From Candidatus Nanoarchaeia archaeon (GTDB taxonomy: Archaea; Nanobdellota; Nanobdellia; Woesearchaeales; JANQNC01): a DNA stretch of 32,000 nucleotides. Of the stretch, positions 492 to 32,000 are shown piece after piece; within the stretch, counting starts at the first letter, position 1, and each line of letters opens with the position of its first letter. A model generated the notes under the pieces. The model searched no databases. It was not told the DNA's origin and saw only the letters and a list, made by a program, of their open reading frames with translations. The translations under genes and the position numbers were made by a program. The DNA is taken from contig JANQNC010000001.1 of the NCBI GenBank assembly GCA_028279745.1, positions 330,001-362,000 of the forward strand, in the 5' to 3' direction.

Positions 492-1287
492 TTTTGAAAT
501 TCTCCAGCTCATCCCATCTAAAGACAGGACCATCTAAACAAGTATATTTGCCATGAATCATGCAATGACCACACATTCCTAAAGCACATTGCATCAATCT
601 TTCAGCACTTAAGAAAATTTGTTCCGATTTGAAACCTTTTTCTTTCAGTAATCCTATTATCTTGTTGATCATGATAGGTGGACCGCAAAGGAATGCAACA
701 GTGTTTTCGCTGTTTATATCTAGTTCTTTCATCCTTTCCATCAGATAACCCGTTTTCATCTCAAAACAAGCCAGGTCATCACCTTCTTCTGCTTTGTCAA
801 CAGACATCATCAAATTGTATTTATTTTTCCATTCAGGAGTTTCTCTTCTGAATAAAACATCATGAACACTTCTATAACCGAAGAAAAGATCGATGTTTTG
901 GTAGTCTTCTCTGTTCTGGTCAACATAATCAATAATCCCTTTTAGTGGAGCAACACCACAGCCGCCACCTATGATCAAAAGGTTGTTGCCTTTTAGCTCT
1001 TGCATAGGATAACCTTTACCGTAAGGACCTCTGACCCATATCTCGTCACCTTCTTTTAGCTTTCCAAGACTGTTTGTTACTGAGCCAATCTCTCTAACGT
1101 TTAGTTTCATGTGATCTTTTGAATATGAACAGATAGAGATCGGAGCTTCACCAATACCTGGGAGAGATACTTGAATGAACTGACCTGGTTCGTGGTCAGT
1201 TTTGAAATCTATCACGATAGAGAAATTATCAGGGCTTTCTCTATAAAATTCTAAAATTTTTACCTTTTGTGGGATGTAGTCATTCAT
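484..1287 (-). CDS. hydG: Sulfhydrogenase gamma-like subunit (FAD/NAD(P)-binding oxidoreductase with C-terminal 2Fe-2S site)
   Basis: 267 aa. Ferredoxin-reductase-like fold signature (GGGCGVAPL) and C-terminal CALGMCGHC...C cluster motif. Overlaps the beta and delta genes by 4-8 nt. Confidence 0.75.
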   Translation of the reverse strand: MNDYIPQKVKILEFYRESPDNFSIVIDFKTDHEPGQFIQVSLPGIGEAPISICSYSKDHMKLNVREIGSVTNSLGKLKEGDEIWVRGPYGKGYPMQELKGNNLLIIGGGCGVAPLKGIIDYVDQNREDYQNIDLFFGYRSVHDVLFRRETPEWKNKYNLMMSVDKAEEGDDLACFEMKTGYLMERMKELDINSENTVAFLCGPPIMINKIIGLLKEKGFKSEQIFLSAERLMQCALGMCGHCMIHGKYTCLDGPVFRWDELENFKND

Positions 1288-28864: not shown

Positions 28865-29611
28865 TTAGAATTCAACAGCTATTGCTGCAACATCATCATG
28901 AACTTTTCCTTCTTTATTGTTTTCAACTTCATACTTTCTAACTTCTTTAAGAATTCCTTCTAGACCAACTTCATGATAAAGATCTATAAAACCTTTAAAA
29001 TCTTCTTTTATGAAATAAGGTGGAAGAATTAAACCATCTGTCATCAAAATTATTGTCTTTAGGTTTTCTGTGTGAAGAGTTCCAGAATCCGCATATTGTT
29101 CAACATTTTCATCTCCTGTGAGGGCTGCAAGTTCTTTACTTAAACCAACTTGTTTTCTAGCTTCAATAGGATCAGAAGTCTTATCTTGTGATAGTTTATC
29201 AGGAGCAATGATTTGTCTTATTACCTTTATTTCGTTTTCATACTCGGCGATAATCATAGTGTGCCCCATGTTAACATAATCTACTTCATCTTCTCTTATT
29301 TTAATGACTGCTGCGTCTGTGTTCCAAATCTGTTCTCTATTGTTGTAATCGATTCCTGCATTAAGTTGAGCAGTTCTAATCTTAATGTTGGAATTCTTTA
29401 AAGAATCTAAGAGGTTGATGCTGTTTTCATCAAAAGCTTGTTTAGCTAAGCTTGAAACAATTCTTCCACCAGTCTCTCCTTTTTCATTTTCATACTTAAC
29501 GATAGAAGTTGCACCATCAAAAACACCAAATAAATTTTCTTTTACAAGAATTTCATCTTCGTTTAATTTGTTTGAACCTTTTTCATAAACTTGTTTAACT
29601 TTAGTTTTCAT
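28865..29611 (-). CDS. PP2C-like Ser/Thr phosphatase family protein
   Basis: 248 aa. NEDEILVKENLFGVFDGATS, LMTDGL and HDDVAAIAV are collinear with the PP2C/SpoIIE metal-binding motifs. Confidence 0.55.
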   Translation of the reverse strand: MKTKVKQVYEKGSNKLNEDEILVKENLFGVFDGATSIVKYENEKGETGGRIVSSLAKQAFDENSINLLDSLKNSNIKIRTAQLNAGIDYNNREQIWNTDAAVIKIREDEVDYVNMGHTMIIAEYENEIKVIRQIIAPDKLSQDKTSDPIEARKQVGLSKELAALTGDENVEQYADSGTLHTENLKTIILMTDGLILPPYFIKEDFKGFIDLYHEVGLEGILKEVRKYEVENNKEGKVHDDVAAIAVEF

Positions 29612-29681
29612 ATTAGCAAATAAACCACCCCAGTATAAAAATTTTGGTATTGGTAGAGAGAGAACAAATTTTTCCGAAACA

Positions 29682-29689
29682 TTTATATA
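29682..29689 (+). promoter_or_regulatory. TATA-like element of the polyK/polyDE transcription unit
   Basis: TTTATATA in the 200-bp intergenic region. It is the only TATA-like element upstream of 29812 on this side. Confidence 0.35.
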
Positions 29690-29811
29690 TCAAAAATTTC
29701 AAATTTTAAAGATTGTCAGAAAAAGAACGGTGTTTTGATGACTAAAGAAAAAAAATTCTTAAAAAATAAACTTTTGAGGTATTTAGAAAAGTAAAAAAGG
29801 AGGTGAAAACT

Positions 29812-30042
29812 ATGGCGGCAAAGAAAAAAGCAAAAAAGAAAGTAGCTAAGAAAAAGAAAGCAGCTAAAAAGAAAAAAGCAGTGAAGAAAAAAGCAAAGAA
29901 AAAAAAGGCAGTGAAGAAAAAGGCTAAAAAGAAGGCAAAGAAAAAGAAAGCTGTAAAGAAGAAAGCTAAGAAGAAAAAAGCAAAAAAGAAAGCAAAGAAA
30001 AAAAAGGCTAAAAAGAAAAAAGCTAAGAAAAAGAAACGATAA
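29812..30042 (+). CDS. Hyper-basic Lys/Ala repeat protein (76 aa, 53 Lys + 1 Arg), histone-H1-tail-like
   Basis: Perfect SD AGGAGGTGA (29798-29806), 5 nt before the ATG at 29812; the track start at 29803 is a GTG inside the SD. Sequence MAAKKKAKKKVAKKKKAAKKKKAVKKK... contains only K, A, V and R after the Met. AAA and AAG codons are interleaved. Confidence 0.7.
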   Translation: MAAKKKAKKKVAKKKKAAKKKKAVKKKAKKKKAVKKKAKKKAKKKKAVKKKAKKKKAKKKAKKKKAKKKKAKKKKR

Positions 30043-30068
30043 GATAAAATAGGTGAGGGGTGTTTTAG

Positions 30069-30170
30069 ATGTATGAAGACCTAGAAGAAGAGGAAGAAAC
30101 TCTCGATGAAGAGATGGAAGTTGCTGATCTAGACGGCTATGATGATGACGATATGGACCAAGACATTTAA
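30069..30170 (+). CDS. Hyper-acidic peptide (33 aa, 19 Asp/Glu, no basic residue)
   Basis: Not in ORF track. Hand translation: MYEDLEEEEETLDEEMEVADLDGYDDDDMDQDI. SD AGGTGAGGGG (30051-30060), 8 nt before the ATG. Starts 26 nt after the polyK stop and is followed by oligo-T runs. Confidence 0.55.
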   Translation: MYEDLEEEEETLDEEMEVADLDGYDDDDMDQDI

Positions 30171-30171
30171 A

Positions 30172-30190
30172 TTTTTTTTATAATTTTTTT
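30172..30190 (+). terminator. Oligo-T termination signals
   Basis: T8 (30172-30179) and T7 (30184-30190) immediately after the acidic-peptide stop. This matches archaeal oligo-T terminators. Confidence 0.5.
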
Positions 30191-30830
30191 AATTGATAAT
30201 TTTTTCTATGAATTCAAACTGATCTTTAAAGATATGAGCAGAAACAGAGAATACAGTCAAAGCACCAACAGACACATTAAGCTTTTTACTGATGTAATCC
30301 TGCAAAACATGCAACTGGTAAACATTTGCAGGCCAGCCAAAGAAAATATCATTACTTCTGATAAAACCAGTCATGCACAACTTACCGTCGTGAATAATGA
30401 AATCCAACCCAACCAATCCTGGAACTTCTTTGCTTCCCGCAGTGTCTTCATCAGGGTTCCATAAACTAATGTAAGCTCTTCTAGAAGAAGGGCTATTCTT
30501 AAGTAAAGGAATAACATACTCGTTTATCTGATCGATGTTCTTGTTGAAGTTAAACATCCTTGAACCATAACTATAAGCATAATCAAGACTTAATTTTGAG
30601 GAAAGCATTATGTTTGCAATCTCATCTAATTTAGGATAGCTCCAAGTTTGGAATGAGTTCAACAGATCAATCGGCGCAGTCACTTCCTTTTCAGGATTTT
30701 TTATCTCAATCACAAGATTAAGCAGTTGTCTGCAAGTCCTGCCGTTCTGATCAACAAAGTCTGTTCCTTCTTCAAGTATCAGCCTTAATGATTTTTTCCA
30801 AGCATTCAAAGTTAATTCTTCACTGATCAT
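30189..30830 (-). CDS. Thymidylate synthase (ThyA)-fold protein, short archaeal type, with Gly at the canonical nucleophile-Cys position
   Basis: 213 aa. Collinear with E. coli ThyA: SSRRAYISLWNP (SRR...WNP), IRSNDIFFGWPANV (RSxD...G.PfN) and SAHIF (DTHLY). However, ALAPCHAFFQF aligns with KEVPGLVGLDF. Confidence 0.65.
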   Translation of the reverse strand: MISEELTLNAWKKSLRLILEEGTDFVDQNGRTCRQLLNLVIEIKNPEKEVTAPIDLLNSFQTWSYPKLDEIANIMLSSKLSLDYAYSYGSRMFNFNKNIDQINEYVIPLLKNSPSSRRAYISLWNPDEDTAGSKEVPGLVGLDFIIHDGKLCMTGFIRSNDIFFGWPANVYQLHVLQDYISKKLNVSVGALTVFSVSAHIFKDQFEFIEKIIN

Positions 30831-32000
30831 TTTTTACCACCCAAGAAAGCATCCAATCTTAAATTAACTCCTTCTGCTTTCTTAAATCTATAAACAAAGA
30901 ATGGGAGCTTGTAAGAAGATAACAGCAAAATCCACTCCCTTGCAATCTCCTGCGTGTCTAGAATCCCGTGCCTTACAAACTCAACCATAACACTACCTTC
31001 AAGAACATCTGACTTTCTTTCGCAAATGTTAAGTTTCTTTTTTACCTTGGTGCTTTGCAAGTTTTCATCCTGCCTGACAATCTGATTTTCAGACTCAGAA
31101 TTTATAGAAGATGTGACCGCAACCTTAAAACGAGTAGGCATACCGCAACTTTTGTATATTGTTTCTTCAGAAAACGTAAATGCTGAAACCTTTTCCTCAA
31201 CTTTCCTTAAAAGATCAATTGTGAAATCAACACCAAACTTTTCAGTCAAGAAACCATAATTCCAAAACCTAAGATAGTTTCGACTAAGCATAAATACTTG
31301 CTGAGTGTAAGGTTCATTTAGGTTAACCAAATAATCAAAGAATTCTGCTGCCTTCCTCCGGTGGATAGAGTTAGCTGAAAGCAACGATTCTGCACAATTT
31401 ATCACAAACCTTTCAAAAGAATCACCAGAAAAACCATATCTATCATAGTACTTCTTGACATCAACACTTAAAGAGGATTGCCCGCAACTTAAGGAAGATA
31501 CTTTACCTTGAACATTCTTTGAATAATCTTTCCATTCCGCACCGTTAAAACAATAAAGACCACCTTTGCCAAAACAGTAAGGGCTCTTAGCAAGAGACTT
31601 GTTCTTAATAAAAAGTGCGACACCGTTTTGAGATAGAATGCTGATAATAGTCTCAAATAAGGATGAGTCTGCACGGATCGATTTAGGACCCATCTCAAAA
31701 ATAATATTTAAGTTAACATACTTATTTGAAGCAAAAGATTTGACAAAAGATACCAGCTTATCTTCATCCACATCATCAACATCGATGTTAAAAGAGATTC
31801 TCTTGCCAAAATCCCTGCAGTCATCATCAAGCTTGTTAAGATAAGAAGATAATTCATCTGCAGAAGTGTCTATGAAAACTTCAAAATTGTTTATACCAAT
31901 ACAATCATTAACAAGATTAAAACTGTTATTTATTATACCAAACAGCTTTTCAACATTATTGATAACTTTACACTCACAGAAAAGACAGTTTAACCTATCT
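30827..32000 (-). CDS. Hypothetical protein, N-terminus beyond window end; translationally coupled to the ThyA-like gene
   Basis: The frame stays open from 31771 (track GTG) to 32000 with no stop (...DRLNCLFCECKVINNVEKLF...DVDDVDEDKLVSF...), so the gene is partial. ATGA overlap with the downstream gene. No family recognised. Confidence 0.55.
   Translation of the reverse strand, partial: DRLNCLFCECKVINNVEKLFGIINNSFNLVNDCIGINNFEVFIDTSADELSSYLNKLDDDCRDFGKRISFNIDVDDVDEDKLVSFVKSFASNKYVNLNIIFEMGPKSIRADSSLFETIISILSQNGVALFIKNKSLAKSPYCFGKGGLYCFNGAEWKDYSKNVQGKVSSLSCGQSSLSVDVKKYYDRYGFSGDSFERFVINCAESLLSANSIHRRKAAEFFDYLVNLNEPYTQQVFMLSRNYLRFWNYGFLTEKFGVDFTIDLLRKVEEKVSAFTFSEETIYKSCGMPTRFKVAVTSSINSESENQIVRQDENLQSTKVKKKLNICERKSDVLEGSVMVEFVRHGILDTQEIAREWILLLSSYKLPFFVYRFKKAEGVNLRLDAFLGGKK

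Follow-up and report, generated by a model that had tools for sequence, protein, structure and literature searches.

A conserved pair of lysine-rich and acidic small open reading frames next to a ThyA-like gene in DPANN archaea

When an open reading frame (ORF) of 76 codons specifies 53 lysines, one has to ask whether it is a gene at all and, if it is, what the organism might do with it and with the very acidic ORF that follows. The question is raised by positions 29682-30190 of a 32,000-nt stretch of archaeal DNA, hereafter the window (Candidatus Nanoarchaeia archaeon, assembly GCA_028279745.1, contig JANQNC010000001.1, positions 330,001 to 362,000). The two frames will be called the Lys-ORF and the acidic ORF, and the pair with its signals the cassette. 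A first-pass annotation, made from the letters alone, had described a self-contained operon and had proposed that the acidic product chaperones, neutralises or holds inactive the basic one. Comparison with related archaea gives good support to the view that both ORFs are real and linked, and makes a non-coding A-rich tract unlikely. The cassette is so far undescribed. Its workings are a more tentative matter: with somewhat less than even confidence, we read it as a conserved, translated two-cistron cassette in which the acidic peptide would be the effector and the Lys-ORF an efficiently initiated upstream ORF acting in cis.

The two ORFs and their coding signatures

The features of the cassette are as follows.

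29675..29689, plus strand: predicted archaeal promoter, with a transcription factor B recognition element (BRE)-like CGAAACA and then the TATA box TTTATATA (29682-29689), read from the sequence
29712..29797, plus strand: predicted 5' leader of ~100 nt with a candidate 18-codon upstream ORF (uORF) at 29738-29794, the transcription start being placed from the TATA position
29798..29806, plus strand: Shine-Dalgarno (SD) sequence AGGAGGTGA of the Lys-ORF, the longest anti-SD match among 36 starts scored
29812..30042, plus strand: Lys-ORF, 76 codons, (A/V)1-2 K3-4 repeats ending in KKKKR-stop, net charge +54, identified by composition and orthologues
30043..30068, plus strand: intercistronic spacer of 26 nt with the SD-like AGGTGAGGGGTG (30051-30062)
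30069..30170, plus strand: acidic ORF, 33 codons, net charge -19, with the core L-D-G-Y-D-D-D at 30129-30149, identified by motif conservation
30172..30190, plus strand: oligo-T runs, T8 and T7, a likely archaeal terminator (predicted), which overlap the stop codon of the convergent ThyA-like gene

The TATA-like element and the oligo-T runs lie where the first-pass annotation had put them, and the single TATA box together with the oligo-T runs suggests that both ORFs are co-transcribed. The Lys-ORF product (MAAKKKAKKKVAKKKK...KKKKR) contains 53 K, 17 A, 4 V, 1 R and 1 M, which agrees with the composition first given for it. Its SD, which had been called perfect at the outset, stands 5 nt before the ATG and is the strongest in the window.

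The codons of the Lys-ORF are not arranged at random. Lysine is encoded by AAA 29 times and by AAG 24 times, interleaved, and the longest run of A is 8 nt; the earlier observation of interleaved codons and short A-runs therefore holds, and it can now be given a probability. When the Lys codons were shuffled synonymously at the same codon composition, only 0.14% of the shuffles kept the maximum at or below 8 nt (P about 0.001), and at the window's own AAA usage of 65% the proportion was 0.06%. Iterated Lys codons slow ribosomes and promote sliding on AAA runs (PMC4363877), and the avoidance of A-runs is consistent with selection against such sliding. The residues are regular as well: each of the 15 Lys runs comprises 3 or 4 residues, an arrangement matched by none of 200,000 residue shuffles.

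The DNA points the same way. The Ala codons (17/17) and the Val codons all lie in one frame, and the other two sense frames contain 4 and 6 stops. Degenerate tandem repeats occur in frame with periods of 15, 27, 30, 42 and 57 nt; above a weak 7-nt period, all are multiples of 3. A recent expansion at the DNA level was considered and rejected, as the exact repeats do not exceed 22 nt and the longest is within the range of synonymous shuffles. The synonymous sites are scrambled while the frame is still open, and the expansion of the Lys-ORF would therefore be old.

Low-complexity DNA of this kind might alternatively be a non-coding A-rich tract, for example the spacer or terminator region of the convergent ThyA operon, in which the ORFs are fortuitous. 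Its T-rich antisense strand could terminate ThyA read-through, and HMMER finds no poly-Lys homologues. We regard this as very improbable, because the strict 3-nt periodicity, the A-run avoidance and the regular K3-4 spacing all speak against it, and the comparison with relatives, given below, adds to these.

The acidic ORF was also correctly described at the outset. Its product (MYEDLEEEEETLDEEMEVADLDGYDDDDMDQDI) has 33 residues, of which 10 are D and 9 are E, with no K, R or H, and it has its own SD: the AGGTGAGGGGTG element resembles the GAGGTG-type SDs, 5-9 nt upstream, that are usual for other genes in the window. The acidic ORF is recorded as a called gene in public collections, and the full 76-aa Lys product is not. 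No signal peptide or hydrophobic segment is present in either product, which bears out the earlier statement that signal peptides and transmembrane segments are absent. AlphaFold2, run on the single sequence, models the Lys-ORF product as one long helix with a predicted local distance difference test (pLDDT) score of 97, and the Ala/Val positions are not confined to one helical face. For the acidic peptide it predicts a helix at residues 3-21 (pLDDT in the 70s) followed by a tail of low confidence.

The assembly is matched at 100% identity by independent Logan unitigs of SRR20820740, two of which (L001, L002) break inside the Lys-ORF with a 30-nt overlap at window positions 30007-30036. No exact repeat within the Lys-ORF is longer than 22 nt, and k-mers above that length should therefore suffice to assemble the correct number of repeats.

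The cassette in related archaea

Neither peptide can be followed easily by similarity. HMMER's composition correction suppresses matches for such sequences. Searches based on HMMER miss both peptides, and the acidic peptide alone is too short for a word-indexed search. Among 5.8 billion proteins, the poly-Lys protein gave 8,000 word-sharing candidates, none of which scored, and neither the 76-aa nor the 79-aa product was on record when looked up by exact sequence. A profile of three acidic peptides, searched against the same 5.8 billion proteins, recovered only the peptide of one relative (L048, below) and the window's own, and when 1.84 billion representatives were searched exhaustively by HMMER with acidic peptides, the two queries retrieved nothing but themselves. 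Neither peptide matches a family in Pfam (E up to 10, including HC2, Hc1 and Linker_histone) or NCBIfam, and the acidic peptide has no meaningful match in the PDB. Literature searches found no description of such a Lys/acidic cassette and no paper citing SRR20820740. The acidic peptides thus appear to form a new small family, as judged from these searches, with no detectable relatives outside a few DPANN lineages.

A scan of viral contigs for an SD followed by MAKKKK returned only unrelated phage mini-ORFs without an acidic partner. In a set of IMG/VR viral contigs (L050, L052-L056, L059), a 15-codon mini-ORF MAYKKKKAKKMKRKY lies behind an SD and is followed by very basic ORFs of 57-77 aa; these are unrelated to the archaeal cassette.

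Relatives were instead found through the neighbouring ThyA-like gene: homologues at 60-72% identity were taken from the protein database and their contigs were then fetched. In forty loci from GTDB genomes and JGI metagenomes, in which ThyA is at most 56% identical, the cassette was not found, though the ThyA-like gene and an adjoining gene for a 552-aa protein stay paired there. The apparent lack of conservation was overturned by the closer relatives, and distant synteny (ThyA <=56%) is uninformative on whether the cassette is conserved. The loci compare as follows, with ThyA identity to the window in brackets.

Window (100%): SD AGGAGGTGA, Lys-ORF 76 aa, +54; spacer 26 nt; acidic peptide 33 aa, -19
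L048 (65%): SD AAGGAGGT, Lys-ORF MAKKKKKAKKKKAKKKR, 17 aa, +13; spacer 31 nt; acidic peptide MEGELILEEDQEEVLDMDGYDDDIEDSDEGF, 31 aa, -16
L060 (62%): SD GAGGAGGT, Lys-ORF MAKKKKAVRKKSKKKAKRCSCC, 22 aa, +12; spacer 23 nt; acidic peptide MKKDETVAEEDDPDEELLDVDGYDEDEEKMDDDFGSNEP, 39 aa, -17
L061/L062/L063, three samples (60%): SD TGGAGGTG, Lys-ORF MAKKKK, 6 aa, +4; spacer 10 nt; acidic peptide MEDKALPDDDDIETTDFEGYDEDMEESDAF, 30 aa, -14
L044/L045 (69%): no Lys-ORF; acidic peptide 50 aa, -18, with ...DDDDEFEGYDEDEHDSEI at its end and the same ATAGGTGAGAGGTG leader before it
L047 (72%): contig ends inside the ...GYDEDEHDSEI ORF, with the Lys-ORF region beyond the contig
L046 and L049 (72% and 61%): no cassette next to ThyA

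The first-pass annotation had itself proposed conservation and adjacency in related genomes as the check on the pair, and the basic and acidic ORFs do recur together in four lineages. All four have the same order at the same chromosomal position, namely a strong SD, an ORF beginning MAKKK, a spacer with a second SD, the acidic ORF and oligo-T. The start MA(A)KKK behind a strong SD, and an end 10-31 nt before the acidic start, are features of the Lys-ORF in every carrier. In 445 kb of related DNA, an SD with ATG-GCN-(AAR)n is found only directly upstream of the GYD acidic ORFs, in 4/4 lineages, and the Ala and Lys codons of MAKKKK vary synonymously between lineages. The window and L048 also share a terminal KKKR-stop, in which Arg is encoded by CGA in one and AGA in the other. 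ATG, strong SD and open frame alike have survived in four lineages among which the ORF varies from 6 to 76 codons, and this is a further point against a fortuitous origin in a non-coding tract.

The acidic ORF is the more constant partner. In the peptides of five lineages G-Y-D-x-D is invariant, and a hydrophobic residue always stands two positions before the G, while third codon positions in this core vary (GGC/GGT/GGA, TAT/TAC, GAT/GAC). In the last 11 codons of the acidic ORF, three synonymous changes and no non-synonymous one separate L044 from L047. In six-frame translations of the 445 kb, [DE]GYD[DE][DE] is limited to these acidic ORFs. The peptide evolves fast outside the core, like disordered proteins. 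By these sequence comparisons the acidic ORF is under purifying, protein-level constraint, a second result that a non-coding tract would not predict.

A tract that resembles the coding Lys tract but appears to be non-coding does occur near the same operon elsewhere, and might be taken to favour the non-coding explanation. It is a purine-rich simple repeat (AAGGAAAAGGAAAACAACAAAGAAG...) located directly after the stop of a 552-aa-family gene at 4375-4640 of L018 (= 2375-2640 of L037). By contrast with the Lys-ORF, this tract has no start codon and several open frames.

The Lys-ORF is far less constant. It has 6, 17, 22 or 76 codons with a net charge of +4 to +54, and the charge of the acidic peptide is steady at -14 to -19. 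Co-occurrence is not obligate, because the acidic ORF stands without a Lys-ORF in L044/L045, and neither charge nor length is matched between the partners. In L044, a promoter region homologous to that of L060 (TTTAAATACTAnCnGTTTCAG) lies at -54 from the acidic ORF; this promoter adjoins the acidic SD, and a deletion therefore appears to have removed the leader together with the Lys-ORF. Being variable in length and missing from these two loci, the Lys-ORF behaves like an accessory, dispensable element, as far as the sequences tell. In L060, the Lys-ORF (about 935-1003, minus strand) ends in ...AKRCSCC; set against AGA TAG in L048, this looks like the loss of an ancestral stop with the addition of 4 codons, including three for cysteine.

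On a ThyA neighbour-joining tree, the window with L048 and L060 spans a clade, and L061 falls just outside it as the nearest outgroup. With carriers spread across the clade and present in this outgroup too, the pair is ancestral and the 76-codon form derived; a short Lys-ORF is probably the older state. On this comparison, the 76-residue poly-lysine protein results from an expansion in one lineage and is not a conserved polycation that comes with a chaperone of its own. The cassette is specific to a subclade of Woesearchaeota-like DPANN archaea, where it is anchored just downstream of the convergent ThyA-like gene.

The signals around the ORFs follow the same pattern of conserved position. TTTATATA is located at -130 from the Lys-ORF ATG, and a TTTAWAWA box lies at -126 to -144 from this ATG in 4/4 cassette lineages. 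Runs of T5 to T10 begin directly past the acidic stop in 5/5 lineages. The leaders of the four lineages are conserved in length and not in sequence, with only the GGAGGT SD in common. The 18-codon leader uORF that the first-pass annotation had offered as a possibility does exist as an ORF, but the leader ORFs are unrelated between lineages and it was rejected as a conserved element. The spacers are 10, 23, 26 and 31 nt long, each with a second SD, and the element ATAGGTGAG...GGTG of the window's spacer is also present in L044 and L048. The leader does not fold significantly better than shuffles (z -0.4 and -0.7), the spacer has no significant fold either, and we found no alternative RNA structures and no attenuator or anti-SD structure; no Rfam family reached its gathering score for the leader. 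Fusion of the two products by frameshifting or transcriptional slippage was rejected by hand inspection, as the frame offset varies between lineages and the shifted frames meet stops first.

Possible roles of the two products

In our tentative reading, one promoter, with its TATA box ~130 nt upstream, would drive a transcript that has a ~100-nt leader and ends at the oligo-T runs. The conserved product would be that of the second ORF, a largely disordered polyanion of 30-50 residues with the motif hydrophobic-[D/E]-G-Y-D-[D/E]-D near its C-terminus. This peptide may act as a DNA or RNA mimic or competitor, docking by its charge on a folded partner whose basic surface probably binds nucleic acid. 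The Lys-ORF would hold ribosomes on the A/G-rich mRNA, close to the second SD, either by loading them or by leaving the message open or protected, and its body would be free in length through the in-frame gain or loss of AKKK(K) units. In the lineage of the window it would have grown to 76 codons, so that a +54 (AKKK)n polycation should be among the cell's products. Such a product would bind any polyanion; a secondary role in trans is plausible, and the polycation may by now serve a separate function in binding nucleic acids or other polyanions.

Precedents exist for both halves of this reading, and each differs in important respects. Small acidic regulators and DNA mimics dock on basic nucleic-acid-binding surfaces, and their C-terminal residue is often hydrophobic. 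As a lead, we would compare the acidic peptide with eukaryotic DSS1/Sem1 and with the acidic C-terminal tails of SSB and T7 gp2.5, which are likewise short and strongly acidic with few aromatic or hydrophobic anchors. Unlike these, the acidic peptide is confined to a few DPANN lineages, and it shows no detectable sequence relationship to them in Pfam, NCBIfam or the PDB. The Lys-ORF, for its part, resembles prokaryotic leader ORFs and bicistronic designs in being a short ORF with a strong SD, on what is predicted to be the same transcript, that ends near the downstream SD and start and is conserved in position. It differs from them in that the cassette has no attenuator or anti-SD structure, in that the downstream gene is itself a tiny peptide, and in that the spacers of 10-31 nt appear longer than termination-reinitiation would tolerate (PMC10666635). 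A leader of 76 codons of pure Lys/Ala is, to our knowledge, unprecedented.

Several points weigh against a role in cis. In Haloferax volcanii and Escherichia coli, gaps of about 20 nt nearly abolish termination-reinitiation (PMC10666635); the spacers appear long for the classical mechanism, and any cis effect would probably need another route. The acidic ORF also has its own SD. Nor is it obvious why an ORF that acts purely in cis should conserve its terminal Arg, and the K3-4 spacing, regular over 76 codons, suggests a constraint on the product or on its translation. Finally, the comparison draws on four or five lineages, all of them uncultivated.

One could also see the Lys-ORF as a regulatory leader peptide, in which pausing or sliding on Lys codons senses the supply of Lys-tRNA, the status of elongation factors or the state of the ribosome, and so sets expression of the acidic ORF. 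A Lys-only upstream ORF with a strong SD is indeed conserved before a small gene, its 6-codon form still reads KKKK and then a stop abutting the next SD, and the slowing and sliding that such a sensor would exploit are those documented for iterated Lys codons (PMC4363877). Nevertheless, we think it improbable. Leader and spacer have neither alternative structures nor a significant fold, the long form avoids A-runs, which is the opposite of what a sliding or stalling sensor needs, and the downstream gene has no link to lysine metabolism. We know of no leader-peptide attenuation described in archaea.

The proposal of the first-pass annotation, a polycation with a co-encoded polyanion, deserves more room. 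It holds that DNA, RNA or polyphosphate is condensed or coated by the (AKKK)n protein, which the co-translated acidic peptide in turn chaperones, buffers or antagonises. Two extreme and opposite charges, adjacent in four lineages, invite this explanation. The Lys-ORF seems to have been selected for accurate translation over its whole length, the window and L048 keep the MAKKK N-terminus and the terminal KKKR by different codons, and the helical propensity predicted for the polycation is high. The charges also rise together in rank (+4/-14, +12/-17, +13/-16, +54/-19), though with n=4 this is not significant. Yet the basic partner in L061 is just the 6-residue MAKKKK, identical over the pair region in three samples, and in L044/L045 the acidic peptide persists without any basic ORF. 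At +54 against -19, the window's pair is far off 1:1 neutralisation, and the invariant G-Y anchor would suit docking on a folded third partner rather than on oligo-lysine. A basic ORF that ranges from 6 to 76 codons or is deleted, next to an acidic charge that stays level, fits the proposal poorly, and we consider it doubtful. More narrowly, the 76-residue (AKKK)n protein and the G-Y acidic peptide might, in the window's lineage, be a working polyelectrolyte system (a nucleic-acid or polyphosphate condenser or a coacervate) that evolved from a minimal MAKKKK uORF; this too we hold to be unlikely.

The known parallels to such a pair are instructive in their differences. Hc2 and Hc1 of Chlamydia, AlgP of Pseudomonas, BpH1 of Bordetella and the mycobacterial HupB tail share with the Lys-ORF product a low-complexity, extremely basic sequence with Lys/Ala repeats of four to five residues in tandem. 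The repeat number of Hc2 varies between strains. The Lys-ORF product differs from these bacterial H1-like proteins in being archaeal, in matching no HC2, Hc1 or linker histone profile, in always preceding an acidic ORF, and in its more extreme composition of 70% Lys with otherwise Ala/Val. Its orthologues shrink to 6 codons or vanish, which is a poor fit to a core chromatin protein. AlgP associates with polyphosphate granules (PMC9239181). With H1 and prothymosin-alpha the likeness is one of charge only, that is, two oppositely charged disordered polypeptides and possibly a high-affinity electrostatic complex. H1 and prothymosin-alpha are eukaryotic and are not encoded together, and the cassette departs from them in its unmatched charges, its dispensable polycation and the specific G-Y motif of its polyanion.

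A related proposal is a toxin-antitoxin-like, defence or host-directed module, in which a polycation that damages membranes or nucleic acids is held inactive by the polyanion. Two tiny adjacent ORFs of opposite charge would suit such a module, and so would their patchy distribution among close relatives, the pair being missing beside ThyA in L046 and L049. Most of what we found is at odds with it. Searches of PADLOC and PHROG gave no match at E up to 10, no mobile-element genes were found near the cassette, where the neighbours are housekeeping genes, and its chromosomal position is fixed, with a presence on the ThyA tree that is consistent with vertical descent. It is the putative toxin that dwindles to 6 residues or disappears, while the gene that is conserved is the putative antitoxin. 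With neither a signal peptide nor a hydrophobic segment in either product, we rate this module as highly unlikely.

The locus and what the cassette may mean

The window is ordinary chromosome of a low-GC (~35%) DPANN archaeon and carries S19e, Cbf5, aIF2-alpha, NrdD and Lhr. The closest ThyA relatives are labelled Woesearchaeota, Nanoarchaeota or Pacearchaeota. The cassette sits between two genes on the opposite strand.

28865-29611, minus strand: PP2C-like gene, divergent neighbour, scoring just under the Pfam cut-offs (PP2C/SpoIIE-like phosphatase)
30189-30830, minus strand: ThyA-like gene, convergent neighbour, 213 aa

The PP2C/SpoIIE-like gene is apparently leaderless, with a TATA-like TTTTTATA ~25-32 nt before its ATG on the minus strand, and it is not syntenic with the cassette in relatives. 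The ThyA-like gene overlaps by 4 nt the hypothetical gene for the 552-aa protein (30189-32000 for the two, minus strand), which runs past the window end; the readable 314-aa part of its product has no Pfam match. This gene and ThyA are kept as a pair in about 40 Woesearchaeota and Nanoarchaeota loci. In L018/L037, two genes that we take, from sequence alone, to be nucleotidyltransferase-like (200 aa) and HEPN-like (169 aa) are inserted between the 552-aa-family gene and ThyA.

All carriers belong to a few uncultivated DPANN lineages. Standard profile searches miss such genes, and synteny is the only workable route to them. If the two ORFs are expressed as their sequences suggest, the acidic peptides would be a new archaeal small-protein family with a G-Y-D-x-D motif, the partner of which could be searched for. 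The Lys-ORFs would offer a natural length series (6, 17, 22 and 76 codons) for the translation of poly-lysine, and an archaeon would be seen to tolerate 53 lysines in 76 residues, with AAA and AAG interleaved and K-runs of at most 4. The locus may also be a snapshot of gene birth, in which a polycation arises from repeat expansion of an upstream mini-ORF. Should the polyelectrolyte interpretation prove true, this would be the first operon-encoded polycation-polyanion pair, and a functional protein traceably born by the in-frame expansion of a leader ORF.

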